Made by a program: the position numbers and the translations under genes
Notes under the pieces: model-generated
The model's database searches: none
What the model saw: only the letters and a program-made list of their open reading frames with translations
Told to the model about the DNA's origin: nothing
DNA from: a virus
Lineage: Duplodnaviria; Heunggongvirae; Uroviricota; Caudoviricetes
Length of the DNA stretch: 64,000 bases
IMG/VR virus record: IMGVR_UViG_3300035034_002381
Span: 1-64,000 of that record
Direction: 5' to 3' (one strand)
In this document: positions 8,646 to 22,802 of the stretch, one piece after another
Position numbering within the stretch: position 1 is the first letter of the stretch
Layout: every line of letters begins with the position of its first letter

Positions 8646-8870
8646 ATGAAAAAGGTAACATTTCTAATTTTAATATTGTTCAACATTAATTTATGGGCAC
8701 AAGAACAACCAGATACAGTTTATGTTCTGAAAAGTTTTACAGTCAAAGGTGTGAGAGCTGATCCTAAAACACCGATCACACAAAAAACAATAGACAAGAA
8801 ATTTATTGAACGCAATTATTTTGGTCAAGAAATTCCTATTCTTTTAAATACCACACCATCAATAAATTAG
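8646..8870 (+). CDS. short secreted protein resembling the N-terminus (signal peptide plus start of plug region) of a Bacteroidetes TonB-dependent receptor; probable truncated host-derived fragment
   Basis: MKKVTFLILILFNINLWAQ signal, then TVKGVRADPKTPITQKTIDKKFIERNYFGQEIPILLNTTPSIN, then stop at 74 aa. Confidence 0.4.
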   Translation: MKKVTFLILILFNINLWAQEQPDTVYVLKSFTVKGVRADPKTPITQKTIDKKFIERNYFGQEIPILLNTTPSIN

Positions 8871-9245: not shown

Positions 9246-9277
9246 CAAAGTTTTAGTTCATTGACATATTAATATTA

Positions 9278-9361
9278 GAGGATGCGGTAATGGTGGTTAT
9301 TACAGTATCTTGGAAAGGTACCGATCGTTTATTCGGTCAGGGTTCGACTCCCTCATCCTCT
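9278..9361 (+). tRNA. tRNA-Ser (GGA), class II
   Basis: Perfect acceptor GAGGATG/CATCCTC, anticodon stem GTATC/GGTAC with loop TTGGAAA, variable hairpin CCGATCG...CGGTC, T-arm AGGG-TTCGACT-CCCT. Confidence 0.65.
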
Positions 9362-9397
9362 GCTATGTTCTTCTTAGAATAACTAATTTATGTAAAT

Positions 9398-9414
9398 GTG
9401 AGTTCGAATCTCAT
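9398..9414 (+). other. isolated T-arm-like hairpin GTGAG-TTCGAAT-CTCAT preceded by CTTAGAATA motif
   Basis: Seen in sequence. Confidence 0.3.
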
Positions 9415-9492
9415 CAAATGCTTTTAGCATCTGTAGCCAAATGGTTAGGCAATATACTTGAAATATATAACAAACGATTAGAAGAACAACAT

Positions 9493-9565
9493 GCTTCCAT
9501 AGTATAAAGGTTCATTATTCCTGTTTTGTAATCAGGCGATATCGGTTCGATTCCGATTGGGAGCT
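9493..9565 (+). tRNA. tRNA-Thr (TGT)
   Basis: Acceptor GCTTCCA/TGGGAGC, anticodon stem CCTGT/TCAGG (one mismatch) with loop TTTGTAA, T-arm ATCGG-TTCGATT-CCGAT. Confidence 0.65.
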
Positions 9566-9714
9566 CAATGAATATGATGTTTATTTAGATCCTAAAAATG
9601 ATTATCTTATTGGTATAGATAGTAAAAAAATTGAAAAGGTCGAAGAATTGTATAATGTGCGTAATAATAGACAAGGATAATTTATCTTGGAATGATATTC
9701 AAAATAAAATAAAT

Positions 9715-9795
9715 GTTTCAGTGGTGGAATGGTAGACACGTCGGTCTTAGGAACCGATGCCGAAAGGCGTGAGAGTTCGAGTCTCTCCTGGAATA
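9715..9795 (+). tRNA. tRNA-Leu (TAG), class II
   Basis: Acceptor GTTTCAG/CTGGAAT, anticodon stem TCGGT/ACCGA with loop CTTAGGA, variable arm TGCCGAAAGGCGT, T-arm GAGAG-TTCGAGT-CTCTC. Confidence 0.75.
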
Positions 9796-9796
9796 C

Positions 9797-9876
9797 ACTC
9801 TGGTGGATTAGGTAAATTGGTACAGCTAAACGGCTTAGACCCGTATCCCTTCTGGGTTCGAATCCCAGTCAGAGTA
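9797..9876 (+). tRNA. atypical 80-nt tRNA (family member A), anticodon loop CTTAGAC (TAG)
   Basis: Acceptor ACTCTGG/TCAGAGT, extended D-region GTGGATTAGGTAAATTGGTACAGCTAA, stem ACGG/CCGT, T-arm CTGGG-TTCGAAT-CCCAG. Confidence 0.55.
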
Positions 9877-9881
9877 CAAAT

Positions 9882-9961
9882 GCTCCTGTGGTTTATGTAA
9901 ATTGGCACAGCTAAGCGGCTTAAACCCGCAACCTTTATGGGTTCGAGTCCCATCAGGAGTA
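9882..9961 (+). tRNA. atypical 80-nt tRNA (family member B), anticodon loop CTTAAAC (TAA)
   Basis: Acceptor GCTCCTG/CAGGAGT, D-region GTTTATGTAAATTGGCACAGCTAA, stem GCGG/CCGC, T-arm ATGGG-TTCGAGT-CCCAT. Confidence 0.55.
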
Positions 9962-10056
9962 CAAAAGTTTATCAACGTCTTGAGTCAAGTTGGATGATGA
10001 CAAAAAGGCTAACGGCAGAAGTGAATCCATCGCACTGTGTTACATAAACTTTATCT

Positions 10057-10129
10057 GGCCAGGATTCTCAATTGGACGGGACTCTGTCTTCTAAACAGAT
10101 GTTTGTGGGTTCGAATCCCATCTTGGTCT
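10057..10129 (+). tRNA. tRNA-Arg (TCT)
   Basis: Acceptor GGCCAGG/CTTGGTC, anticodon stem TCTGT/ACAGA with loop CTTCTAA, T-arm GTGGG-TTCGAAT-CCCAT. Confidence 0.65.
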
Positions 10130-10135
10130 CTAAAC

Positions 10136-10209
10136 GCAGGTATACCTAAGTGGTTTAAAGGAGCGGATTGCAAACCCGTTATTCATTGGTTCGAATCCAA
10201 TTACCTGCT
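10136..10209 (+). tRNA. tRNA-Cys (GCA)
   Basis: Perfect acceptor GCAGGTA/TACCTGC, anticodon loop TTGCAAA, T-arm ATTGG-TTCGAAT-CCAAT. Confidence 0.7.
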
Positions 10210-10214
10210 CACTT

Positions 10215-10297
10215 GGAAGGTAACTTGATGGTGATAGAGGTAGTTTGCTAAACTACTGGCCGTTTACTCGGTCGAGGTTCGATTCCTCTGCCTTCCG
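10215..10297 (+). tRNA. tRNA-Ser (GCT), class II
   Basis: Acceptor GGAAGGT/GCCTTCC, anticodon stem GTAGT/ACTAC with loop TTGCTAA, variable hairpin GGCCG...CGGTC, T-arm GAGG-TTCGATT-CCTC. Confidence 0.65.
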
Positions 10298-10301
10298 CTA
10301 T

Positions 10302-10379
10302 GCTCCTGTGGATTATGTAAAAGCACAGCTAACACCTTGAGGAGGTGATCCTTTGTGGGTTCGAGTCCCGCCAGGAGTA
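10302..10379 (+). tRNA. atypical 78-nt tRNA (family member C), anticodon loop TTGAGGA (GAG)
   Basis: Acceptor GCTCCTG/CAGGAGT, D-region GATTATGTAAAAGCACAGCTAA, stem CACC/GGTG, T-arm GTGGG-TTCGAGT-CCCGC. Confidence 0.55.
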
Positions 10380-10419
10380 CAAAGAAGCAAAGAGTTAGTT
10401 AGGTTAGACTGGCTTGTTA

Positions 10420-10470
10420 TGTGGTGAAATTGGTAAACGCGAGCGCTTTGGTGCTTAGTAACCTTAACAC
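10420..10470 (+). other. partial tRNA-like paralog (GTGGTGAAATTGGTAAACGC D-region shared with the 10788 element; no T-arm)
   Basis: Sequence similarity only. Confidence 0.25.
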
Positions 10471-10479
10471 TTCTTATTT

Positions 10480-10553
10480 GCTGAGTTAGTATAGTCGGTT
10501 TATTACGATACCCTGGTACGGTATTAACACCAGTTCGATTCTGGTACTCAGCT
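10480..10553 (+). tRNA. tRNA-Thr (GGT)
   Basis: Perfect acceptor GCTGAGT/ACTCAGC, anticodon stem ATACC/GGTAT with loop CTGGTAC, T-arm ACCAG-TTCGATT-CTGGT. Confidence 0.75.
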
Positions 10554-10565
10554 CATGAAAAATAT

Positions 10566-10645
10566 GCCTCTGTGGATTATGTAAATTGGCACAGCTAACG
10601 GTTTCAAACTCCGATCTTTTATGGGTTCGAATCCCATCAGAGGCA
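10566..10645 (+). tRNA. atypical 80-nt tRNA (family member D), anticodon loop TTCAAAC (CAA)
   Basis: Perfect acceptor GCCTCTG/CAGAGGC, D-region GATTATGTAAATTGGCACAGCTAA, stem CGG(T)/(T)CCG, T-arm ATGGG-TTCGAAT-CCCAT. Confidence 0.55.
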
Positions 10646-10661
10646 CAAGTAGGAGAAATTT

Positions 10662-10746
10662 AGTCCAGTGGCGAAACAGGTATACGCACAAGATTTAAGC
10701 TCTTGCTTCCATTGAGGAATTGCGGGTTCGATTCCCGCCTGGATTA
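10662..10746 (+). tRNA. tRNA-Leu (TAA), class II
   Basis: Acceptor AGTCCAG/CTGGATT, anticodon stem CAAGA/TCTTG with loop TTTAAGC, variable hairpin TTCC-ATTGA-GGAA, T-arm GCGGG-TTCGATT-CCCGC. Confidence 0.7.
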
Positions 10747-10750
10747 CTAA

Positions 10751-10785
10751 GTTAGTACGGGTTCGATCCCCGTCTTGGCTACTAA
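10751..10785 (+). other. isolated T-arm-like hairpin ACGGG-TTCGATC-CCCGT (tRNA fragment)
   Basis: Seen in sequence. Confidence 0.3.
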
Positions 10786-10787
10786 AT

Positions 10788-10899
10788 TTGACCGTGGTGA
10801 AATTGGTAAACACACCCTTAAATCAGGGAGTATGAGAATATGTACTTGAAGCTGACGCAGAACATCATACATATGTAGGTTCGAATCCTATCGGTCGAA
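10788..10899 (+). ncRNA. 112-nt tRNA-like RNA with a ~44-nt insertion: a 7-bp hairpin ATATGTA...TACATAT between the anticodon-arm-like region and the T-arm
   Basis: Acceptor TTGACCG/CGGTCGA, D-region GTGAAATTGGTAAACAC, CCCT-TAAATC-AGGG, inserted hairpin 10838-10874, T-arm GTAGG-TTCGAAT-CCTAT. Confidence 0.45.
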
Positions 10900-10904
10900 C
10901 AAAT

Positions 10905-10978
<74 letters not shown>

Positions 10979-10984
10979 CTATCT

Positions 10985-11014
10985 AAAACTTTATTCAATT
11001 TCCATAATATAATG
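10985..11014 (+). promoter_or_regulatory. promoter-like motif AAAACTTTATTCAAT-N5-CATAATATAAT; same motif at 21071-21099
   Basis: Two near-identical copies, each about 30 nt upstream of an ATG. Confidence 0.45.
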
Positions 11015-11261
11015 TGTAACTAAACTTTATAGAAATGGAAAAAATACTAATGTCTGAAATTTTGACTTATGACAACTTCGACGACGGTTTACCTGAAGAA
11101 TATGAATTTGTCGATTCTGAACAAACATATTTTGATGGTGAAAAAGGCTTTGTTAATATCGAAGCTATTATCAGAAGAGAATCAGACTCACAATTTTTAA
11201 AGTAAAATACACCGATTATGGAAAAGGTGAAAATGATCTTATGGAAAGTGTGGGCGAACCT

Positions 11262-11327
11262 GTAACTCAAAAATCCAAAACAATTTTCTACTATGTAACT
11301 CAAAAATCCAAAACAATTTTCTACTAT
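11262..11327 (+). repeat. perfect tandem direct repeat, 2 x 33 bp (GTAACTCAAAAATCCAAAACAATTTTCTACTAT); second copy ends in the ATG of the 11326 ORF
   Basis: Exact duplication seen in sequence. Confidence 0.9.
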
Positions 11328-11598
11328 GAATAGTATGACCTTTTTATTAGGCATTACGTATGTTATCGGATACTTTTTAAGTATCATAATCCTAAAAAGA
11401 TTTCACCATATTTTGGATATTCCAGATTATAATTCATATCCAAAATATAATGAATATTCAAGCAATGCACAAGCATACACAATGTGGTCAATTGTATGGC
11501 CGTTATTTTGGGTCTTAAAAATCATAGTTCTTCTTTTCGAAAAACTTATTAATTTAACTAAATATATACTAAATGGAAACTCAAGCTCAAGAAAGTAA
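11326..11598 (+). CDS. small putative membrane protein
   Basis: 90 aa with hydrophobic segments; start codon embedded in tandem repeat. Confidence 0.35.
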   Translation: MNSMTFLLGITYVIGYFLSIIILKRFHHILDIPDYNSYPKYNEYSSNAQAYTMWSIVWPLFWVLKIIVLLFEKLINLTKYILNGNSSSRK

Positions 11599-12508
11599 TA
11601 GAATAATCAAAGAAATTCATTCTTCTTTTTATTCAATGGATCAAGAAACTGATACATATCTTCAACGCCAAATTCAAGCTGCGTATGACGAATCTATCAA
11701 AGGCTCTTTAGAGAAGACTATCAAAAAATATGGTTTTAATAATGCCAAAAACTCTGACATTTTTGATAAAGCATTACTTGAAAGTCGGGAAGAATTAAAT
11801 GATGTCTTAAACGAATGTTCAGTGACATATCCAGGTAAAAAGTTTATTACTGATGAACAAATAGCACAGCTTTGTATCAAATATAATTTATTACTAACAA
11901 CACCAGATAGATTTATTGGTGAAATACCAGAACGTAATATCCAAGAGTTGAACGACTTTAATCCAAAAGGTAGCGAAAAAAAGGCGTTTTTTGATCCCAA
12001 AGTTTTTTATAAATTATATAACTTTATAAGAGAATATGAAGAGAAGCATTATTATATGAATAAAAATCTAAAAAAATCTATTGCAATGATTTATCGATCA
12101 TTTATGAATCATAGTAACATGGATTCAATACTTTTTCCAGATAATAATAAATATATTGTTCATGGTGTCAATGAAGATAAATCAATCACCACAACTGAAT
12201 TAGGTATTCAAACAGCAAAGAAAATATCTGAAGAATTATCTAAGAAAGAAAGAAATTCTGTACCTATTTTACCGTTGTTTTCACAAACTATGATAGCAGC
12301 GACATCTGATTTACTTGATATTCCTAAACTAGGATTGATCAAGAATAAAAGAAATGAACTTGTTTTAGGTCTTAATTCAAAACAATTTAAAGAAAATTTT
12401 CTACCTGATCCAATTGTACTACATAAAGTAAAACGTGGTGCTATTATTATAACTGCTTGGGGCTTGGAATCTCAAGATGAACTAGTATTCAATCCTATTA
12501 TTAATTGA
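11573..12508 (+). CDS. hypothetical protein
   Basis: 311-aa ORF. Confidence 0.55.
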   Translation: METQAQESNRIIKEIHSSFYSMDQETDTYLQRQIQAAYDESIKGSLEKTIKKYGFNNAKNSDIFDKALLESREELNDVLNECSVTYPGKKFITDEQIAQLCIKYNLLLTTPDRFIGEIPERNIQELNDFNPKGSEKKAFFDPKVFYKLYNFIREYEEKHYYMNKNLKKSIAMIYRSFMNHSNMDSILFPDNNKYIVHGVNEDKSITTTELGIQTAKKISEELSKKERNSVPILPLFSQTMIAATSDLLDIPKLGLIKNKRNELVLGLNSKQFKENFLPDPIVLHKVKRGAIIITAWGLESQDELVFNPIIN

Positions 12509-12512
12509 TAAT

Positions 12513-12695
12513 ATGGAATATACGTGTATAAAGGTAGTAACTATTACAGAAGGTAATTTACCCCCTAGGATAGTAGTTGAATTGAAATCTGGAAATATTA
12601 AAATCGAAATAGAAATAAATGAAGACTTTGAAAAGGTCCCTGAAGATCTATTGAAACTTAAACCGGGCGAAACGTATTCGCTTTTAATAAATTAA
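12513..12695 (+). CDS. small hypothetical protein
   Basis: 60 aa, tightly packed after previous gene. Confidence 0.35.
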   Translation: MEYTCIKVVTITEGNLPPRIVVELKSGNIKIEIEINEDFEKVPEDLLKLKPGETYSLLIN

Positions 12696-12712
12696 TAAAA
12701 ACAAAACCCCTT

Positions 12713-14710
12713 ATGAAAAAACTATTACTATTATTAATGCTATTTTCTTCTGTGAATTTATTTTCACAAGAAAATTATTTGATCCTTGATACCATTGGTA
12801 TGGATCAATACGAAAAACAAATTTTTGAGGAAAAAGTAAATTCCCCAGAATCTAACGAAGAGATTTCATGTTTAACCTTATTTGCTGGATCCAGACATGA
12901 ATTTAATTCAAAGTTAAAATCAATTAACGAATCAAAAAGCAATGTTGATATTAACGAAACTATTAGAATTCCCGTTGTTTATCATATTATGCACATTACC
13001 AAATTTGGTCTTGGTGGAGTTCCTTTCGAATCAGGACTAATTAGCAAACAACAAGTGTGGTCTGCTTTGGATGATCATATTAAAGGATTCCAAGCATATG
13101 TTGGGACTCGTCAAGAAACGGGATATGATACTAATATAGAATTTTATTTAGCAAACCTGGATGAAGAAGGAAATTTATTTGACGGTGTTATTTATTATGA
13201 TATGGACACAGTCCCCTGGGTAACTACTGAGGAAAGAGAACAATTTTTTAATTTCGGAATGTTTGGTATTGGACTTGATGATTTCTTAATCAAAAATAAC
13301 ATTTCATTAGACCCTGATAGATATCTAAATGTTTACATTACTCCAGAGATTTCTGGTAATGATGGAGGTAATGGGATCCAAGGATATGCATTTTTTCCAG
13401 GTGGTACTCAAGCACTTTGGGGACAAACAAATTTATCAAATATAGTAGGATTACCTTCAGTAAACTATTATGATGCTGATTTTGATGGTATAATGGACGA
13501 AGGAGTGGGGCCTTTACTTAAACCCAGTGCTCAAGAAAATGATACCCATCCACACGAAACCGGACATAATTTCCGTCTTTATCATACATTCCAAGGACAA
13601 AGTTGTGCAATTGAAGGTAATTGTGATACCCAAGGAGATGGAATCTGTGATACGGAGCCAACCCCACGTAATACCCAATGTAATTATAATGGGTGTCCGA
13701 CTCCTACCCCCGTTTCTAATAAGAATTATATGTCATATTCAGAATGCAGGTTTGAATTTACCGAAGACCAAAACCATGAAATGCGATCTTCTTTCACTGA
13801 AGATCTACCATTACTTGTTAGCAGTATTGATTCGGGATTATGTTATATTCCAAGACAAACCCAAGTTGAAATGATCATCCCACAATCAAACGATATAACA
13901 GGATGTCCCGATTCTCCTTTCCTTTCTTTTACTGTAAGAAACCTAGGTCCTGAAGTTGATTCAACAGGAATCCCGGTTATGTTAACAAATCTTGTTATAG
14001 CTTATGGAAATGATTTGTCTAACGTTGACACGTTTGAATTTAATTTAAATTTAGGTCCTTTCCAATATGATGATTTAGTTTTACCTTCTGTAGATAATCA
14101 AAGTTCAAATAGAAAGATCAAATTACTTTCTGTTAACGGATTTCCGGTAGAAGATTCAAGCACTCTTTCTACTAATCTTCCAGTAGGACCTAATGAATTA
14201 ATTGTAGTTTGCCAACCAAACTGTTCATCAATACAAGATAATTATTGGAAAGTTACAAATTTAAATACTGGAACTATTGCATTCCAAAGTGAATATTATC
14301 CTGTTAATTATTCAGGACCTCCTATCGAAACAAGGATCTGTTTACCTGGAGGCAATTATCAATTTTCATTAATTGATGAATCTGAAAATGGTTGGAATGG
14401 TACTTTTTGTAATCCCGATTTTTTCGATGAACCATTTATGGAAGTTTATTACAATGGATCCTTATGTCAATCTATACAAGGTGATGAATTTAATAGTTCT
14501 GAGTGGTCATTTACAAATTGTAACACTAGTACTCAGGGACTGATTGAAAATGAAGAAGAACCTGTTTTAGAATATGAGTACTATACTCAACAAATGGAAA
14601 GAGTAGAATTTGAAGATATTGTTACAAACCAATTCTTTATAATTTATACTTATGAAAAATCTGAAAGTTCTAGAGAGTTGATCGATAGAGATTGGATCAT
14701 AAAACAGTAA
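12713..14710 (+). CDS. secreted zinc metallopeptidase, metzincin-like (HExxHxxxxxH; M43/pappalysin-like), Cys-rich
   Basis: Bacteroidetes-type signal peptide MKKLLLLLMLFSSVNLFSQ; motif HETGHNFRLYH; many Cys in the region around it. Confidence 0.55.
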   Translation: MKKLLLLLMLFSSVNLFSQENYLILDTIGMDQYEKQIFEEKVNSPESNEEISCLTLFAGSRHEFNSKLKSINESKSNVDINETIRIPVVYHIMHITKFGLGGVPFESGLISKQQVWSALDDHIKGFQAYVGTRQETGYDTNIEFYLANLDEEGNLFDGVIYYDMDTVPWVTTEEREQFFNFGMFGIGLDDFLIKNNISLDPDRYLNVYITPEISGNDGGNGIQGYAFFPGGTQALWGQTNLSNIVGLPSVNYYDADFDGIMDEGVGPLLKPSAQENDTHPHETGHNFRLYHTFQGQSCAIEGNCDTQGDGICDTEPTPRNTQCNYNGCPTPTPVSNKNYMSYSECRFEFTEDQNHEMRSSFTEDLPLLVSSIDSGLCYIPRQTQVEMIIPQSNDITGCPDSPFLSFTVRNLGPEVDSTGIPVMLTNLVIAYGNDLSNVDTFEFNLNLGPFQYDDLVLPSVDNQSSNRKIKLLSVNGFPVEDSSTLSTNLPVGPNELIVVCQPNCSSIQDNYWKVTNLNTGTIAFQSEYYPVNYSGPPIETRICLPGGNYQFSLIDESENGWNGTFCNPDFFDEPFMEVYYNGSLCQSIQGDEFNSSEWSFTNCNTSTQGLIENEEEPVLEYEYYTQQMERVEFEDIVTNQFFIIYTYEKSESSRELIDRDWIIKQ

Positions 14711-14868
14711 ACAAACAATGTGGGTGTATAGAAATGTACACTCACATTCTAACTAAATTTTTATGTAGCAGATGATGAAGTAGCTAAGAATCAAAAATTA
14801 CGAAAATGGCTTGTGTTACCCAAATGGTAAACTGACTTTTCGGGGATTTCTTAAATCAAAAATAAAAC

Positions 14869-15075
14869 ATGGAAAAAGTAAGAATCGTTCAAGATGAAAG
14901 TAGTCATTGGTACATAATCCCTAATAAAAAATTGGAAGATTTTTATGAAGATTCTGTAAACATTGAAATGTGTGATAATGGGAATTTTGATAGAAAATGG
15001 GCGCAATATGCTACAGGCGGCAGCCCTAATAATATTCAATTATATGCAAATTTAGAAGTTTATTTTTCTATGTGA
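14869..15075 (+). CDS. small hypothetical protein
   Basis: 68 aa. Confidence 0.35.
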   Translation: MEKVRIVQDESSHWYIIPNKKLEDFYEDSVNIEMCDNGNFDRKWAQYATGGSPNNIQLYANLEVYFSM

Positions 15076-15110
15076 ATTATTTTGATTATATTTAAACAAA
15101 TAAAATTGGT

Positions 15111-15422
15111 ATGGAAAGAAATGAATTTTTAGAACTTGATGGTTTAGCAGCAGAAACTGAAACACATGAATGGTTTTGGGACAAAAGTTCTACACTACTT
15201 GCTCACAAAAAATCTATAACTTCTAACGGTAGAGAAGACGATTCACTCGACGTTAAATGTATGGTTTGTAGGAATAAAGAAACTGGTGAGTATGACAGAG
15301 TTGTATTAAACAACAAAAACGAACCTATTTATGATACTAAAAGTTTAGAAAGTCTAGGTTTTTGGATTGATAAACATAAAGTAATTAAAAGATACCAAGA
15401 TCATGACAAAATTTCAAAGTAA
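15111..15422 (+). CDS. hypothetical protein
   Basis: 103 aa. Confidence 0.4.
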   Translation: MERNEFLELDGLAAETETHEWFWDKSSTLLAHKKSITSNGREDDSLDVKCMVCRNKETGEYDRVVLNNKNEPIYDTKSLESLGFWIDKHKVIKRYQDHDKISK

Positions 15423-15603
15423 TTCAATAGGAACTGTAATGATACCCGACGGTACGTATTTAGGTACAGTCACTGGTTTTAGAGTTAAACTTAAAAGAGG
15501 CGGAACGATTTTAGAGTTTGAAGTCAAAGACAATAGTAATCAAAGTAATCTTCCTGTTAATATCATAGTTAATGGTATGCGGGCAAAAGTAATACAAACA
15601 TGA
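15403..15603 (+). CDS. small hypothetical protein
   Basis: 66 aa; overlaps neighbours by a few nt (operon-like). Confidence 0.35.
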   Translation: MTKFQSNSIGTVMIPDGTYLGTVTGFRVKLKRGGTILEFEVKDNSNQSNLPVNIIVNGMRAKVIQT

Positions 15604-16139
15604 AAAACTGGAGATCAGTTGCTGATAAAGGTACAAAATTTGATTTAGTTGAATATACCAAAAAATTTCTTGGTGATTATAATCATAGCGATGTACATAT
15701 TTATGTAGGTTGCGATAGTCAAAATATTCGCAAGTCAAAATGGACTGGTTATGTTACTTGTGTAGCATTTCATATAGGTACAATTGACGGCGATGAATTT
15801 TATGGTAGAGGTGTTCACTTGATTTTTCAAACTGAAAAGTACAAAAAAATCAATGATAACTGGACTCGACTTTGGAAAGAAGTTGAAAAATCTATGGAAG
15901 CAGCAGAAACTTTAAGACAAGCTGGTATTTTAATTCACCAAGTAGATCTTGATTTTAACCAGGATGAACTTCATGATTCTAATAGACTAGTTTCGGCAGG
16001 TGTTGGATTATTTGTGGGTTTAGGTTATAAAGTTGCATCAAAACCTGATGAATTAATTGCATCCCGAGCGGCTGATCATATTATTCATCATACTTCTTGG
16101 AAGAATGTAAAAAGTCTAAATGTAAAAAGTCTAAACTAA
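15600..16139 (+). CDS. hypothetical protein
   Basis: 179 aa; ATGA overlap with previous ORF. Confidence 0.5.
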   Translation: MKNWRSVADKGTKFDLVEYTKKFLGDYNHSDVHIYVGCDSQNIRKSKWTGYVTCVAFHIGTIDGDEFYGRGVHLIFQTEKYKKINDNWTRLWKEVEKSMEAAETLRQAGILIHQVDLDFNQDELHDSNRLVSAGVGLFVGLGYKVASKPDELIASRAADHIIHHTSWKNVKSLNVKSLN

Positions 16140-16355
16140 TGGAGGAAAGAGATATTCGCATTTACATTTATGATCCAGGAAGTTTGAAAAAATTCCACCA
16201 AATCATAAACACAAACATAAAAGTATTGAGTCTGCAGAAGAACTAATAAAAAGGCTACAAGAAAACCCTAAATTTAGATTTGACAGGAGACAATTTGTGA
16301 TTACGGAATACACTGGAGTTTACCAATCATCAATAATCAAAATCATAAATCCTTT

Positions 16356-16688
16356 ATGAAAAAATGGGATGATATAAGAAACTCGATGTCTGGAAATTCA
16401 GATATTATAGAAGTTTGGAAGAAAGTTGTAGATAAACACCAAAATGAAGAAATTGAGTGGATTGAAAACCTTAGAAAACAAGGTTATAAAGCATCTCATC
16501 CTAATGACGGTTGGGTAGACAGAGAAAATAACAAAATACATCTGGTTTATCCACAATTCAACGATGGAATTGGTGTGAATGATAAACTAATGATTGGTAG
16601 TCCAAACAGTGATAATAATCGACCTGTGCGAATAACCGGCATTGATGAATTTGCAATGACATATTATTTATTTGAAGACTTAGAATAA
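16356..16688 (+). CDS. hypothetical protein
   Basis: 110 aa. Confidence 0.45.
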   Translation: MKKWDDIRNSMSGNSDIIEVWKKVVDKHQNEEIEWIENLRKQGYKASHPNDGWVDRENNKIHLVYPQFNDGIGVNDKLMIGSPNSDNNRPVRITGIDEFAMTYYLFEDLE

Positions 16689-17119: not shown

Positions 17120-19195
17120 ATGAACAAAGATTCTAATGTATTATTAATACTTGAAAGATCTTCATCAAATCTAGATGTTAACAAGGAATCGGGTGATTAT
17201 ATTCTCGAAGGTATTTTTGCTCAATTTGGAGTTGAAAACAATAACAAAAGGATTTATGAGGAAAAAGAGTATTTACCACATCTCGAATACTTAAAAAAGA
17301 AAATTTCAGAAAATCGATTGATGGGAGAACTTGATCACCCAGAAAAATTTGAAATTGCTTTAGACAAAGTATCTCACGTAATTGAGAATATTGAATATGA
17401 TCAAGCAAAACGCCAGATTAAAGGGCGTGTACGTATTTTAGATACGCCATCCGGAAAAATCGCAAAGAGTCTAATCGACTCTAATATTCCTATTAGTATT
17501 TCATCACGAGCTGCTGGTTCTGTGAGTGAAAATAAAACTGTTTCTATTAAGAGAATTTTTACTTATGATTTAGTTGCTGATCCAGGTTTTGAAGATGCAC
17601 AATTATCAAGAATAAATGAATCATTTGGTTTAGACAACGAAAATAATCTACAAATTTTTGATGCTTCTAGATGGGACAACAATTTTTCGTTTGATGAAAA
17701 AGAAAAAGAAAAGCCTGTTGAGGCAATAAAAGAAAATAAAGAAAATACTACAGATATGAAAGAATTTGTGACAATTGAAAGCATGGAACGCTATTCATTA
17801 ATGGTCAAAGAAGAAATTGCTAAAATCAATACACGATTAGAAACTCTGAATGAGAGTAATGCTAATTCTGATGAAACAGCAGAACTTAGAAAAACCGTTG
17901 ATAATTTAGTAGGGTATGTTAATGAAATGGCTACCGAAATTAATCAAAACAGAGAATACATGTCATATACTGCTGAAATGCTTGACGAAAGTATTTCTTG
18001 GTCAGAAAATGAGATCGGTAATCAAGTTACTAAATTAATTGAATATACTGAATCTGAATTGGCTGTTCATCTTGATGGTTTAATTGAACACAATAACTAT
18101 CTTGCAGAAAAATTAAACACGACTATTGGATACGTTAATGAAGAATTGGCTCCAATTTTAGATGAGTCTATTAATCACAATGATTATTTAGTTGAACAAA
18201 TTGCTAATAACCGAAAATATACTGAGTATCTTGCTGAAAATGCTGTAGACTCAACAAATTTTGATTCGTTAGTAGAATATACTGAACATGTATATGAAAA
18301 TGCTGCTGGAAAATTTGAAGGTAAAATTAATGAATCTGCAACTGCTGAGGATGTAATTAAAAAACATAAACTTAAAACACATCACGATGTTGCTAAGTTT
18401 ATAGGAGATTTTTATGATTTACCAGATACAATTAAAGGATCTACCGATAAATTCACATTTAAAGACGTTGAGGACAACGTAATTAAAGTTGATGGTAAAG
18501 CAGGAACAGTAGACGGTAAAAAATTATCTCTGGCGGGATTGGTTGATCTTATGTCAGGTGGTGATTTTGATCTTCTTATTGAAAATCAAGCTAATAAAAT
18601 TAACGAAAATAAAAACGTATCAACAGATATTGAAAATCGATACATGAGTATCAATGAAAAAATTGACGCGGCTCTTGAGCAGATCAAGAAAACAAAGACT
18701 GAAGAAATCACAGAGTCTAAACGTCATCCTTTCACCAAACTACTCAACGAAAGTAATAGAGCTGCTTTCACTGAGTTAGGAAAAACCGAAAAAGAAAAGG
18801 TTTCAAAAGCTCTAAATGAAAACGGTATTTTAAGTACTGTAAAACTTAACGAAAAATTCACTTCATTGTTAGAAGGTAATTTCGAAATTGTTGAAGAGCC
18901 TAAATGGTTATCTGAAGCACCAGACAAGTATAAAGCTATTTTTGAAAGTTTGAATGAGGAAACTCAGGATAAACTTAGAGCTCAAGCTTCATGGTACGAA
19001 GGTAAACTTAAATCTCCTTATCAAATCGAAAATTTCTGGGCAACTAGAGGACTGAACGAAGACGTTGAGTTGAAGAATCTGAAAGACGATGCTGATGTAA
19101 AACTTATTAAAGAAAGTAATGATAGATCTAAAGATCTGGGTTATTCTTCTGATCGAGTTGCTGCAATTAAACAAGGTCTGAAAAGATTCAAATAA
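17120..19195 (+). CDS. prohead maturation protease (HK97/S78-like N-terminal domain) fused to a scaffolding-like coiled-coil region
   Basis: N-terminal ~150 aa with GELDHPE and ISISSRAAGS resembling the S78 His and Ser motifs; remaining ~540 aa acidic, helical and repeat-rich; immediately upstream of capsid gene. Confidence 0.55.
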   Translation: MNKDSNVLLILERSSSNLDVNKESGDYILEGIFAQFGVENNNKRIYEEKEYLPHLEYLKKKISENRLMGELDHPEKFEIALDKVSHVIENIEYDQAKRQIKGRVRILDTPSGKIAKSLIDSNIPISISSRAAGSVSENKTVSIKRIFTYDLVADPGFEDAQLSRINESFGLDNENNLQIFDASRWDNNFSFDEKEKEKPVEAIKENKENTTDMKEFVTIESMERYSLMVKEEIAKINTRLETLNESNANSDETAELRKTVDNLVGYVNEMATEINQNREYMSYTAEMLDESISWSENEIGNQVTKLIEYTESELAVHLDGLIEHNNYLAEKLNTTIGYVNEELAPILDESINHNDYLVEQIANNRKYTEYLAENAVDSTNFDSLVEYTEHVYENAAGKFEGKINESATAEDVIKKHKLKTHHDVAKFIGDFYDLPDTIKGSTDKFTFKDVEDNVIKVDGKAGTVDGKKLSLAGLVDLMSGGDFDLLIENQANKINENKNVSTDIENRYMSINEKIDAALEQIKKTKTEEITESKRHPFTKLLNESNRAAFTELGKTEKEKVSKALNENGILSTVKLNEKFTSLLEGNFEIVEEPKWLSEAPDKYKAIFESLNEETQDKLRAQASWYEGKLKSPYQIENFWATRGLNEDVELKNLKDDADVKLIKESNDRSKDLGYSSDRVAAIKQGLKRFK

Positions 19196-19213: not shown

Positions 19214-21007
19214 ATGAAACTTTTAAACGAACAAAAGATCTATGATGAGTGGGCTCCTATGCTAGAGGAGGAAACTTCAATCAAAGATTCTTCAAAATTG
19301 GGATGGATGACTAAATATTGTCACTACCATTCATTAAATGAAGCATTCACTGCACCTGCAGCTGGATTGCTTAACACGCCAGGTATGGGTAATGTAACTC
19401 CTGCTGGAGCTGCTGCCGGTGGTGCTAATGCATTCTACGGAAGTACTACTACTGGTTCAGGAGATAAATTCCCTTCATTATTGCCACTATCTATTCAGGT
19501 AGCTGCAAGAACTGTAGGATTTGATATCGTTCCTGTTATTCCTATGAACGGACCTTCGGGGGTTCTTACATACATGGATTATGTCTATGCTGGTGGAAAA
19601 GGAGCATTCGGAGCACCTCCAGGTGCTGCAGGTGCTGCAAACCCAGGTCTTAACGCTTACGCTGACAAGCCGTTAGTATTCAAAATCCAACTTGTTGGAG
19701 ATGAGAAAACTGCTTTCGATGCTGCTGCTGCGGGTGATGAATTCTTATTTGCTTCTGGTGCACTTGCTGCAACTGGAAACACACTACGTGTTGCTAAAAT
19801 CGGTCCTTCTAGAATCGACGGTCACTCTATTTTTAGAGTAATTGGAGAATCTGGTGATGCTGATGCGACTGGCGGTGCAGCTGCTGCTGTAGCGACAACT
19901 CTTACATCGCCACAATCTATCACATTGGCTTCTGTATTTACAGGAACTGCTGCGATGATTACTGCGGCTGGTGCTTTAGTTGATGCTGCTGATTCAGTAG
20001 TTAATCGTCCAGAACTTGTTAAAGCTCTTGAAGATCACGTTCAAGGTTTTGCTGGTGCAGGTCCAAACGATGATGAAGCATGGTCAGGAAATGCGACTGA
20101 TGGTACTGTATCTTACGAACCAATGCGAAGAGGTGTAGGTGAAGAGCAGTACTTCAGAACTATGGGACTTCAAGCTTTCACGAAATTCATTGAAGCTGAA
20201 ACTTTCCAAGTTGCTGCTAATGTTACTACAGAACAAATTCAAGATTTACAACGTCAGTATGGAATCGATGTGATTGCAATGATCGAGAACTCATTAGTAA
20301 ATGATATCTCTCAATCTATTAACAAGCACATTCTTTCTAGAGCTTTCGCTCTTGGATGGGGTGCAAACCTTACATTCAGAGATGTTGAAGGTGCAAACCT
20401 TAACCTTGAATTGGTAAACACTGGAACTGGTGTTACTGCAACTCCTGCTTACATTGATAAGACTGGAGTAGGTACTGCATCTGTATATCCTGCTTTCCAA
20501 GAATTTGCTGGAGCTGCTGCTGCTGCATCATTGGAAAACCAAGCAACATTCCAACGAAGAGTATATTCTAAAGTACTTGCTGCTGGAAACGTTGTTACTC
20601 AAAGAGGACGTAGAGGACCTGCAAACTTCATTGTTACTAACCTTCAGTTAGCGACAGCGTTGCAAGATTCTGCACAATTCTCTTGGGCACCAATGGCAAA
20701 CACCATTAACCAAAACAACGGTTCGCTTTACCCAGTGGGTACTGTAGCCGGAATGACTGTTTATGTAGATCCTAACATGGGATTCTCTGATAACAGAATT
20801 CTTGTTGGACGTAAAGGTGCTGATGAAGAACCAGGACTTAAATTCATGCCTTACTTAATGGCTGAATCAATCCAAACAATTGCTGAAGGTACAATGGCTC
20901 CGAAAGTTGCCGTAAAATCACGTTATGCTTTAGTTGAAGCTGGACACCACCCAGAAACAATGTACTTTACTATTGCAGTAAATGTACCTGTAGGTGGATT
21001 AGTATAA
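19214..21007 (+). CDS. major capsid protein (putative)
   Basis: 597 aa, Ala/Gly/Thr-rich, directly follows protease-scaffold, followed by strong terminator. Confidence 0.6.
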   Translation: MKLLNEQKIYDEWAPMLEEETSIKDSSKLGWMTKYCHYHSLNEAFTAPAAGLLNTPGMGNVTPAGAAAGGANAFYGSTTTGSGDKFPSLLPLSIQVAARTVGFDIVPVIPMNGPSGVLTYMDYVYAGGKGAFGAPPGAAGAANPGLNAYADKPLVFKIQLVGDEKTAFDAAAAGDEFLFASGALAATGNTLRVAKIGPSRIDGHSIFRVIGESGDADATGGAAAAVATTLTSPQSITLASVFTGTAAMITAAGALVDAADSVVNRPELVKALEDHVQGFAGAGPNDDEAWSGNATDGTVSYEPMRRGVGEEQYFRTMGLQAFTKFIEAETFQVAANVTTEQIQDLQRQYGIDVIAMIENSLVNDISQSINKHILSRAFALGWGANLTFRDVEGANLNLELVNTGTGVTATPAYIDKTGVGTASVYPAFQEFAGAAAAASLENQATFQRRVYSKVLAAGNVVTQRGRRGPANFIVTNLQLATALQDSAQFSWAPMANTINQNNGSLYPVGTVAGMTVYVDPNMGFSDNRILVGRKGADEEPGLKFMPYLMAESIQTIAEGTMAPKVAVKSRYALVEAGHHPETMYFTIAVNVPVGGLV

Positions 21008-21116: not shown

Positions 21117-22802
21117 ATGAACACTTCAGTCAAAGATATTATAAAAAACGTAAAATCCACCAAAGGTTTAGCAGTAAAAATATCAAATTCAGAAAGTCTA
21201 AATAAAGAACTTTTAGAATTAACCAAATACCTACCAACAGACTCTAGTATATCTGAGCGCATTTATAATATCTTAAATAATATTGATGTACAAAGTCTTT
21301 GTATTTGTGGTGACACATTACCATTCATTAAAATTTCCAAAGGTTACAAAACTTCGTGTGGTAATAAAGAATGTAAGTCGCGAACACGGAGTAATATTAA
21401 TAAAGAATCCAGTAAGAAAATAGACTGGGGCGAATCGATCAATAAACAACAAAAAACCAATTTACAAAAATACGGTTATGTTTCTAATCTTGCATCACCT
21501 AAAGAACGAGAAAAACATAAAGTTATTCTTAAAGAATTGACTGGATATGAACACCCATTACAGAATCCTGAATCTAAAAAGAAAAGACATAACACTTGTA
21601 TAAAAAATCATGGTACATTAAATTTCATCCATTCAAATAAATCAATACAAACGTTACAAGCAAAATATAATACCACTGCCACTAATTGTGCTCAAATACC
21701 CGAAATTCAAGATAGATCTGCCAAAACCCAATCTATAAATGCTGATAAAGCTTTATATCAAAAAATTGATAAAATAAATAAAACTATAATAGATCTTAAT
21801 AAAACAAATGCTAATATTGAGTGTGTGGGTTGTGGTCGTATTATGAATATACATCGGCAAGCACTCAATTATTATATTCGAAATTCTATTGACAATTGTT
21901 GGTCTTGCAACCCTGATTTTTCACCATTTGCCAGTAACAAAGAAAAGATGATTGTTACATGGCTCACTGATATAGGTATCACAAATATTGACACAAATCG
22001 CCGGAGATTTGGTGGTAAAGAAATAGATATTTTCTTAAATGATTATAACCTAGGAATTGAATTCAATGGCACATATTGGCATAGTGAATTACACAAAGAA
22101 AAAAATTACCATTTAAATAAAAAAACATATATTGAGAACTTGGGTTTCAAGTTGATTAATGTTTGGGAAGATGATTGGGAAGATGATATAAAACGTAATA
22201 TAATTCAAAGCAGAATTAAAAATTTAATAAACCTAAATCACCGCAAAATATATGGGCGTAAATGTCAGATAGTTCAAATATCTAACAAAGAAGCTAAAGA
22301 ATTTTATACCAATAATCATATTCAAGGTCATGCTATATCAGAAATTAACTACGCATTAGTATATGATAATGAAATTGTTTCAGTCATGAGCTTTTCTAGT
22401 AAAAATAGATTTTTCATTAAGAAAAATAGGGATAATGAAATAGAGTTGACTAGATTTGCAAATTTGATAGGTGTAAGTGTTTTAGGTGGTTTCTCTAAAC
22501 TATTCAAACATTTTTTGAAAAATAATGACCATGATACCATTATTTCATTTGCAGAATTTGATTGGACTGATGAGACTAATAATGTTTATCTTATGAATGG
22601 TTTTAAATTTTTAGGGAATTCTGGACCATCGTATTCATGGGTTGTTAATGGAAAACGGTTTTCTAGATTTAACTTTTCTAAGCAAAAATTAATCAAAGAA
22701 GGTTATGATAAGAATAAAACAGAAGTCGAAATAATGCACGAAAGAAAATATTATCGAGCTTGGAATAGTGGTAACTTAAAATTTATTTATAATAAATTAT
22801 AA
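21117..22802 (+). CDS. free-standing homing-endonuclease-like protein (Zn-ribbon motifs plus Vsr/PD-(D/E)xK-like core)
   Basis: CxxC...CxxxC pairs (CICGD...CGNKEC; CVGCGR...CWSC); segment GGKEIDIFLNDYNLGIEFNGTYWHSE resembles Vsr/DUF559-type nuclease core; inserted after capsid gene and flanked by a duplicated capsid 3' end. Confidence 0.45.
   Translation: MNTSVKDIIKNVKSTKGLAVKISNSESLNKELLELTKYLPTDSSISERIYNILNNIDVQSLCICGDTLPFIKISKGYKTSCGNKECKSRTRSNINKESSKKIDWGESINKQQKTNLQKYGYVSNLASPKEREKHKVILKELTGYEHPLQNPESKKKRHNTCIKNHGTLNFIHSNKSIQTLQAKYNTTATNCAQIPEIQDRSAKTQSINADKALYQKIDKINKTIIDLNKTNANIECVGCGRIMNIHRQALNYYIRNSIDNCWSCNPDFSPFASNKEKMIVTWLTDIGITNIDTNRRRFGGKEIDIFLNDYNLGIEFNGTYWHSELHKEKNYHLNKKTYIENLGFKLINVWEDDWEDDIKRNIIQSRIKNLINLNHRKIYGRKCQIVQISNKEAKEFYTNNHIQGHAISEINYALVYDNEIVSVMSFSSKNRFFIKKNRDNEIELTRFANLIGVSVLGGFSKLFKHFLKNNDHDTIISFAEFDWTDETNNVYLMNGFKFLGNSGPSYSWVVNGKRFSRFNFSKQKLIKEGYDKNKTEVEIMHERKYYRAWNSGNLKFIYNKL

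Follow-up and report, generated by a model that had tools for sequence, protein, structure and literature searches.

The 64,000-nucleotide (nt) stretch studied here, hereafter the window, covers positions 1 to 64,000 of the IMG/VR virus record IMGVR_UViG_3300035034_002381, a metagenome contig of 64,373 bp and hence a fragment. On its plus strand, at 12713..14710, we found a complete gene with an ATG start encoding a pre-pro-M43 metallopeptidase of 665 amino acids (aa). An identical protein is on record from contig k141_21517 (64,373 bp). We are confident that the phage encodes here a 'lower pappalysin' of the ulilysin/mirolysin type (MEROPS M43) that is synthesised as a pre-pro-enzyme, and the gene adds a new, divergent and phage-carried member to a protease family that is well studied. 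The account that best explains the data as a whole, and that we regard as probable, is that of an exported pre-pro-M43 protease which descends from a cargo protein of a type IX secretion system (T9SS) and plays a late accessory role in lysis or release. The last part of this account, the lysis/release role, is put forward tentatively, by analogy with homologues carried by other phages.

The catalytic domain, leader and pro-segment

The Pfam model Peptidase_M43 (PF05572), whose gathering cut-off is 23 bits, matched the protein over residues 199-359 at 41.6 bits (E 1.5e-10), the other metzincin models of Pfam remaining under their own cut-offs. PF05572 likewise matched all members of the five-member clade to which the protein belongs, hereafter the window clade (best E 2e-13). 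A phmmer search of the PDB aligned residues 82-353 with ulilysin (E 4e-6), whose structures were the only solved relatives found by sequence. A profile built from 23 relatives reached proulilysin (E 3e-99), mirolysin (E 2e-93) and the human pappalysins (E 1e-26 to 1e-21). The AlphaFold model had a mean predicted local distance difference test (pLDDT) score of 72, with 80-95 in the catalytic core and low-confidence loops of the catalytic domain at residues 248-274, 294-303 and 317-335. When this model was compared with the PDB by Foldseek, ulilysin (2cki, E 4e-12, target TM-score 0.63), mirolysin (7od0, E 1.6e-11, target TM-score 0.68) and PAPP-A (7ufg, E 1.6e-9) were retrieved. On the basis of phmmer, Foldseek and pLDDT, the catalytic domain was placed at about residues 82-375 (12956..13837; all features of the gene lie on the plus strand).

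The zinc-binding motif, H281-E282-T-G-H285-N-F-R-L-Y-H291, is encoded at 13553..13585, and its residues H281, E282, H285 and H291 were invariant in the 23 aligned sequences. The Met-turn region, N338-Y-M340-S-Y342-S-E-C345-R, follows at 13724..13750. There, M340 was almost invariant and Y342 invariant among the 23 relatives, and the two align with M290 and Y292 of ulilysin (in NYMDYVDDKC); a Met-turn with a tyrosine two residues on has been described as a feature of the family (PMC6949598, PMC11674741). The eighth residue of the zinc motif, usually a glycine, is an arginine in the window protein. Since ulilysin has an asparagine at this position and mirolysin an aspartate (PMC6949598), the arginine is no obstacle to the assignment.

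Cysteines C304, C323, C328 and C345 were also invariant among the 23 relatives and align with C250, C269, C277 and C297 of ulilysin, so that they probably form the two disulfides of the family. The catalytic domain holds an additional pair, C298 and C312, and eight further cysteines sit in the two immunoglobulin (Ig)-like domains that follow. With 15 cysteines in all (2.3% of its residues), the protein ranked third in cysteine content among the 40 open reading frames (ORFs) of at least 150 aa in the window, at 3.3 times their median of 0.68%.

From Y342 to C345 the loop lacks two residues relative to ulilysin (Y292-V-D-D295-K-C297) and to the relatives P0004 and P0005. In the alignment with ulilysin, the window protein has no equivalent of the S1' aspartate that sets the specificity for Arg/Lys at P1' (D295 in ulilysin, D289 in mirolysin). 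Cleavage before Arg or Lys can therefore not be assumed, and the shortened loop predicts a specificity unlike that of the LysargiNase enzymes used in proteomics. This aspartate characterises ulilysin and mirolysin but is not a family-wide trait, so that it bears on specificity, not on membership.

At the N-terminus, residues 1-18 (12713..12766) form a predicted signal peptide, which reads MKKLLLLLMLFSSVNLFS and is followed by QE, with Gln19 at the predicted +1 position of signal peptidase I cleavage. The leader contains two lysines and a hydrophobic core of 13 residues, with a mean Kyte-Doolittle hydropathy of 2.63 over 10 residues. Its first five residues (M1-K2-K3-L4-L5) were invariant in the window clade, and Gln19 was almost invariant in the alignment of 23 relatives. 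The cleavage site, as predicted by inspection, fits the Q-rule described for signal peptidase I substrates of Bacteroidetes (PMC5837995). The leader has no lipobox cysteine and, because no cysteine precedes residue 53, the protein is not a lipoprotein. We noticed one other Q-rule export candidate in the window, an ORF of 74 aa at 8646-8870 (plus strand) whose product starts with MKKVTFLILILFNINLWA followed by QEQ; it has no cysteines and no Pfam match.

These results bear out, in its outline, the picture drawn in an earlier note on this DNA, made from the letters alone: a cysteine-rich metzincin of the M43/pappalysin family with a Bacteroidetes signal peptide and the motif HETGHNFRLYH. The hidden Markov model (HMM) classification that the note had proposed as a check returned a peptidase family above its cut-off, and this PF05572 match also rules out that the HExxHxxxxxH motif is fortuitous.

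A pro-segment extending from residue 19 to about residue 81 (12767..12955) was delimited by alignment. Its Cys53 (codon 12869-12871) was invariant in the window clade and almost invariant among the 23 relatives, and in the profile it shares a column with the cysteine of 'RCG' in the proulilysin pro-segment (8cdb/8cd8), a residue type that has been named as the switch of the zymogen (PMC6949598, PMC11674741). Cys53 likely acts as such a cysteine switch. Several features weigh against this assignment. Cys53 is followed by a leucine where the family has a conserved Cys-Gly; about 33 residues are inserted between Gln19 and Cys53, which places the cysteine 34 residues past the predicted mature N-terminus, compared to 2-4 in the family; and the pLDDT of the model falls below 50 across the pro-segment. 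Because of the Cys-Leu pair, the insertion and the low pLDDT, it is the alignment that the candidate switch draws on.

Among characterised enzymes, the closest comparison is with ulilysin of Methanosarcina acetivorans and mirolysin of Tannerella forsythia (MEROPS M43B), to which the window protein is about 20-23% identical. They share the catalytic fold, a zinc motif with a residue other than glycine at the eighth position, the Met-turn with its following tyrosine, the four disulfide cysteines, and the order of a signal peptide and then a short pro-segment with a zinc-blocking cysteine (a candidate only, in the window protein). Mirolysin is, in addition, a secreted protease from a member of the Bacteroidota. 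Beyond what these enzymes have, the window protein carries two Ig-like domains, a 49-aa tail and the C298/C312 pair, and it is encoded by a phage; it further differs from them in the Cys-Leu pair, the roughly 33 extra pro-segment residues and the S1' loop described above.

Relatives in phages and cells and the C-terminal tail

An exhaustive homologue search returned 1,800 representatives at E up to 1e-3 and 19 at E up to 1e-30, about eight of the latter being full-length. The closest relative, P0002, was 45% identical over the stretches matched by phmmer (41% by BLASTP), followed by P0030 (43%), P0003 (39%) and P0031 (35%). Across the window clade, the catalytic and disulfide residues are conserved at 30-45% identity. 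The gene for P0002 (locus L001) lies between tail-fibre-like genes and an M15 endolysin, in the order M43, three genes, M15 endolysin, with the tail-fibre-like and BNR genes upstream. That for P0003 (L002, crAss-like) is followed by two genes and an Amidase_2, and Ring and muzzle genes are found nearby. On the contig of P0004 (L237), a gene at 2144-2995 that overlaps the end of the M43 gene gave a faint match to Baseplate_J_C, the sole hint that we saw of a family member within a baseplate block. Save for one unrelated match, no flanking genes were common to the window and 154 related loci, and none were shared between the window and L236, the contig of the closest homologue.

Cellular relatives were represented by 417 genome matches, and most of the 79 best loci carried titles of Flavobacteriales or Cryomorphaceae. 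These matches cover the M43 domain and both C-terminal sandwiches, the latter homologous to about residue 560 at 25-31% identity, in proteins of 1,100-2,000 aa. Together with cytophagalysin CPL1 (PMC11674741), the M43 proteins of Flavobacteriales and Cryomorphaceae that are T9SS type-A cargoes show the same order of signal peptide, cysteine-bearing pro-segment, M43 domain and Ig-like domains. Beyond these domains the cellular M43 proteins run on through PKD, SprB-type and other repeats to a complete type-A T9SS sorting domain of 75-85 aa at their end, whereas the window protein ends after the two sandwiches with at most a stub of a sorting domain. The phage relatives overall measure about 580-670 aa.

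A second and far larger group of short forms (577-656 aa), from marine and freshwater phages, also lacks a full sorting domain. It was found on contigs of 20-113 kb that are viral by content (tape measure, portal, holin, endolysins, primase-helicase) and by their inclusion in IMG/VR. A scan of IMG/VR with a query from this marine clade yielded 99 confirmed M43 matches; the same scan with a window-clade query returned nothing, the back-translated patterns being clade-specific. Among the IMG/VR copies, 55 complete and non-redundant ones were compared, and 54 of these keep both HExxHxxxxxH and the Met-turn. A neighbour-joining tree built on the catalytic domain, without support values, set the window clade and the marine viral clade each apart from the cellular proteins.

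The marine and freshwater proteins (as in L004, L189 and L210) have the same architecture as the window protein, with a Q-rule leader and an intact active site, and in them little separates the pro-segment cysteine from the mature N-terminus. Their clade is a separate one, in which a truncated sorting domain of about 37 aa is clear and in which a partner gene, nearby holin and endolysin genes and calcium loops with sub-threshold EF-hand-like scores are often found. The window copy has none of the four: neither the tail pattern of about 37 aa nor the loops, the partner or a nearby holin/endolysin. The partner, found after 38 of the 55 copies and usually joined to the M43 gene by an ATGA overlap, is a secreted protein rich in cysteine whose C-terminus is a type-B sorting domain of the CHU_C kind (PF13585, E 6e-14 and 2e-13). 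These partners are about 300-380 aa long (e.g. L004 11881-12777 and L189 11872-12870), and their N-terminal 200 or so residues match no family. In L189, a tape measure gene, two large genes, the M43 gene, the CHU_C partner, a holin and an amidase abut on one strand; L210 shows the order portal, one gene, M43, M15.

The calcium loops were seen in the M43 proteins of L004, L027, L044 and L025 as paired DxDxDG motifs ('DYDGNGVIGNNDIL...DTNEDGVVGIQDLL') about 60-120 residues before the C-terminus, and some of these proteins (580-587 aa) end directly after the loops, without a tail. To the eye they resemble a dockerin, but with only sub-threshold EF-hand scores in Pfam we do not claim one. L025, a viral-like contig, encodes at 14218-16644 on the minus strand a protein of 809 aa whose type-A sorting domain is full-length (PF18962, cut-off 27 bits, score 27.7); such phages therefore also encode cargo with a complete tag.

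Outside these collections the family was scarcely seen. Neither megablast of the M43 gene nor tblastn of its product found a match among GenBank phages (50,697 deposited genomes in the latter search), and tblastn with a marine-clade homologue returned one fragment of 84 residues (query 207-290) on a 7.6-kb faecal contig. The sole viral M43-fold match in BFVD was A0A6N1NN82, 'Ulilysin' of Tupanvirus deep ocean (E 1e-11), with no bacteriophage entry there matching the catalytic domain. The literature that we searched held nothing linking pappalysins or M43 to phages. A partial parallel is 'Cryophage' (Bellas et al. 2020, PMC7468147), a Bacteroidota phage with secreted-enzyme genes drawn from host T9SS cargo. 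The proteins in question, whose type-A sorting domains are complete, are glycoside hydrolases and a PA14 protein, and no protease, truncated tag or lysis linkage was reported for it.

The C-terminal half of the window protein consists of an Ig-like (CARDB-like) beta-sandwich at about residues 383-490 (domain 2; 13859..14182, pLDDT about 90), a second beta-sandwich with four cysteines at about residues 494-603 (domain 3; 14192..14521, pLDDT about 80) and a tail, residues 617-665 (14561..14707). Pfam matched neither domain 2 nor domain 3 in the window protein; the equivalent of domain 2 in the viral homologue of L189 matched CARDB with 28.3 bits against a cut-off of 22.7. Foldseek returned only generic tandem FN3/Ig-like matches for this half, with no functional clue.

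The tail stands where the relatives have their truncated sorting domain. In 23 non-redundant short forms the protein ends in about 37 aa with the pattern IYDxxGRxV-x(6-9)-LxxGVYILKW-x(4)-KKVFVQ, whose strict form was present in 44 of the 55 IMG/VR copies. An hhalign comparison of the tails of 23 relatives with 19 true T9SS C-terminal domains (CTDs) gave a probability of 89% (E 2e-6) and a score of 30.6, against a maximum of 14.8 over 40 column shuffles. The match spans CTD columns 37-94, the beta3/beta4 plus beta6/beta7 part, with the middle strand deleted; a smaller comparison, of 5 tails with CTDs, was non-significant. By this sequence comparison, the short-form tails are, as a family, homologous to the second half of the T9SS sorting domain. 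The type-A CTD is a seven-strand 3+4 beta-sandwich, in which the L-beta3-beta4 loop and the C-terminus are reported to be essential for secretion; the targeting signal of HBP35 was localised to its last 22 residues, RgpB G699R blocks secretion, and the need for an intact folded CTD is stressed (PMC11285876).

The tail of the window protein itself behaved differently from this family. It comprises 49 aa after domain 3, against 70-100 aa for a seven-strand CTD, and was modelled with three or four short strands, at a pLDDT that differed between two models (72-83 and below 50). Against an HMM of 19 CTDs of relatives it scored -0.7 bits or gave no match, and against an HMM of the mini-tails -4.6 bits, a value equalled or bettered by 181 of 200 shuffles. 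The PF18962 and NCBIfam T9SS models found no match at E up to 10 in the five clade members. In the 23-sequence alignment, the glycine column of the CTD holds Met628 and the 'GxY' column Asn639 and Phe641. These HMM and shuffle tests rule out a recognisable T9SS sorting domain, and on its sequence we do not class the window protein as T9SS cargo. The tail of P0002, the closest relative, scored 8.4 bits against the mini-tail HMM, with none of 200 shuffles as good. The window tail is itself conserved with that of P0030 (34% identity over 58 columns, 37.7 bits), so it is not the product of random decay, and we treat it as a diverged derivative of the sorting-domain stub, linked to it by its equivalent position.

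Proposed function and its alternatives

Judged from these sequence features, the product is most likely a zymogen that would be exported by the host Sec system and would cut envelope or surface proteins of the host. The Sec system would deliver it to the periplasm, where cleavage before Gln19 would be followed by disulfide-bonded folding, with Cys53 blocking the zinc until the pro-segment is removed. The active enzyme would then cut extracytoplasmic proteins, either host envelope and surface proteins or a surrounding protein matrix. Its ancestor would have been a T9SS-secreted multidomain protease of Flavobacteriales-like bacteria, shortened in the phage lineage to about 600 aa with the sorting domain reduced to a stub. 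There, it may serve as a late accessory factor for lysis or progeny release, for example by removing surface or receptor proteins or by loosening the envelope.

The last step is favoured because the genes of many phage homologues have tail genes on one side and holin-endolysin genes on the other. The earlier note had offered 'lysis-associated' as one possibility, and the holin and endolysin neighbours of homologues elsewhere speak for it indirectly; the window shows no such neighbours and in this respect lends it nothing. A third lysis factor encoded beside the holin and endolysin genes and acting on the outer envelope layer is known from mycobacteriophage LysB, an esterase, and from the spanins of Gram-negative hosts, which are non-enzymatic. 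The M43 enzyme is proposed to act in lysis in a comparable way; the likeness lies in the role suggested for the relatives of the window gene, and there is no relation in sequence or fold.

Several observations weigh against a lysis/release role. The gene order of the window gives it no support, since the M43 gene is not near a recognisable holin or endolysin there and is flanked by orphans. The linkage seen elsewhere does speak for the role: 27 of the 55 IMG/VR copies have a homologue of an M15 or Amidase_2 endolysin within 3.5 kb, and this recurs with two endolysin families and in several arrangements, in a count that takes related contigs alike. As a rough estimate of ours, an endolysin would be within such reach by chance in about 15% of cases in a genome of 40-60 kb. 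Furthermore, the tail genes upstream in L001 and L189 and the faint Baseplate_J_C match on the P0004 contig leave room for a structural role.

We consider it unlikely that the enzyme is a true T9SS cargo, its tail being recognised by the type IX translocon of the host after Sec export so that the enzyme reaches the surface before lysis, to stay displayed on it or to be released. At the surface it would destroy the phage receptor or T9SS-dependent adhesins and so block superinfection and the sticking of progeny to debris. In favour of this reading, the 23 phage tails are homologous to the part of the type-A CTD that holds both essential motifs, and the HBP35 signal was localised to as few as 22 C-terminal residues (PMC11285876). 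The CHU_C partner of the marine clade carries a sorting domain of its own, and 'Cryophage' (PMC7468147) offers one reported set of phage-encoded T9SS cargo. In Flavobacterium, resistance to phages is reported to map to genes for gliding and for the T9SS. The window protein fits it poorly: its tail fails against both the CTD and the mini-tail HMM, has Met628 at the site of a functionally required glycine and is shorter than the intact folded CTD deemed necessary, and the window holds neither a CHU_C partner nor any other CTD protein. A similarly low probability attaches to an auxiliary 'moron' (another suggestion of the earlier note), a captured host extracellular protease that supplies amino acids to a very large phage and has no part in lysis or entry. 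The nearest cellular homologues are indeed secreted multidomain proteases of Flavobacteriales, like cytophagalysin; the window gene sits among orphans and tRNA arrays outside any structural or lysis block; and the flanks differ wholly between carrier phages, as for a mobile accessory gene. Against it, the phage copies are old and distinct from the cellular ones rather than recent captures, their length has consistently been trimmed to some 600 aa, and tight linkage to holin and endolysin genes is seen for many of them. Moreover, without a working sorting domain the enzyme would stay periplasmic until lysis, too late for feeding.

The virion-associated role that the earlier note had also raised, here that of a tail or baseplate 'depolymerase' cutting through a proteinaceous surface coat at the start of infection, is in our view quite improbable. 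The gene does lie at the end of the tail module in several relatives (L001, L189), crAss Ring and muzzle genes are found near the L002 copy, a faint Baseplate_J_C match follows P0004, and virion proteins often contain Ig-like domains. Export is nevertheless indicated by the signal peptide, which is conserved, cleavable and followed by Gln at +1, by the pro-segment for latency, by 14 other cysteines that would suit disulfides and by the remnant of a secretion tag. Such a role is disfavoured because the signal peptide, pro-segment and disulfides imply periplasmic folding and the virions of tailed phages assemble in the cytoplasm; in addition, no structural family of PHROGs was matched and the window gene lies outside the structural block. 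The least credible reading, to which we give very little weight, is that of a decaying, functionless passenger or of a cellular or chimeric contig. It could appeal to the tail diverged beyond recognition, the insertion in the pro-segment and the origin of the contig in a metagenome assembly from one sample. It is countered by an intact ORF, by catalytic and disulfide residues that are all conserved in a clade of 30-45% identity, by an odd tail that is itself conserved with P0030, and by a tightly packed, one-stranded 64 kb with a phage capsid gene, a prohead protease gene and tRNA arrays.

Taken together, these genes represent a large undescribed family of secreted, zymogen-type M43 proteases in phages of Flavobacteriales-like hosts; if the preferred account of descent from T9SS cargo holds, the family has been systematically trimmed from host proteins to a sorting-signal stub. 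In many of these phages, the gene is wired into a holin-endolysin operon together with a second T9SS-tagged protein. To our knowledge, lysis and release in phages of Bacteroidota are poorly understood and recognisable spanins are seldom found in them. A secreted protease encoded beside the lysis genes is a testable candidate for the missing lysis step or for receptor destruction, and the tail is a natural experiment on how little of a sorting domain the T9SS needs. More speculatively, and with the same low probability as for true T9SS cargo, the phage M43 tail could be a working minimal T9SS signal, through which the translocon would deliver the latent protease to the surface, or to the translocon itself, just before holin-endolysin lysis. 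If so, the CHU_C-tagged partner would be co-delivered in the marine clade, and the enzyme, specific to hosts that bear a T9SS, would be either a new third component of lysis or release, of an enzymatic kind, or a destroyer of receptors. In that case the gene studied here would be a diverged member that a huge phage has kept.

Genomic setting in the window

The contig is phage, as the earlier note had assumed. An S77 prohead protease (17120-19195, plus strand; PF03420, 46.1 bits) and a gp23-type major capsid protein (19214-21007, plus strand; PF07068, 122.2 bits) are encoded 2.4-4.5 kb downstream of the M43 gene on the same strand. All ORFs of at least 150 aa lie on one strand in the tightly packed window, which also contains 21 transfer RNA (tRNA) genes, all on the plus strand. 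They form dense arrays of 9 and 10 at 229-1094 and 9277-10979, with two more genes at 3901-4355, and include duplicate species for Met, Tyr, Ile, Leu, Ser, Thr, Arg and Val. The capsid protein was 42.7% identical over 99% of its length to that of LR756500.1, a 462-kb uncultured phage, and about 40% over 98% to those of Lak-A1, A2, B and C (540-550 kb; E about 1e-125). By the comparison of this one marker gene, the contig is probably a fragment of a huge phage related to the Lak megaphages of Prevotella. We take its host to be a member of the Bacteroidota. Lak phages reportedly recode TAG; in the window, reading by the standard code yields long ORFs, and the tRNA genes include no reported suppressor.

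Immediately upstream of the M43 gene, two orphan ORFs of 311 aa and 60 aa (11573..12695, plus strand) are separated from each other by 4 nt and from the M43 gene by 17 nt, and are possibly co-transcribed with it. They had no Pfam or PHROG match and no homologues beside M43 genes at other loci. Six small orphan ORFs and an RNase H-like gene stand between the M43 gene and the head genes. Among ten neighbouring ORFs, Pfam and PHROGs recognised only the RNase H-like domain, the head protease, the capsid protein and two PHROGs of unknown function. The M43 protein itself drew two non-significant PHROGs matches, both to families of unknown function. A search of the window for homologues of the M15 and Amidase_2 endolysins, of the CHU_C partner or of a type-A CTD protein found none.

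A scan of 10900-15200 for promoters and terminators found no more sites than in shuffled sequences. Just past the stop codon of the M43 gene, at 14720-14750, two imperfectly matching arms (GTGGGTGTA...TACACTCAC) make up an inverted repeat, with a T-rich stretch after it; the scan for terminators made no call there. Immediately downstream of the capsid gene, an ORF of 561 aa (21117-22802, plus strand) gave a sub-threshold match to REase_MTES_1575 and a match to DUF7487 just above the cut-off, and may be a mobile nuclease inserted beside the capsid gene.

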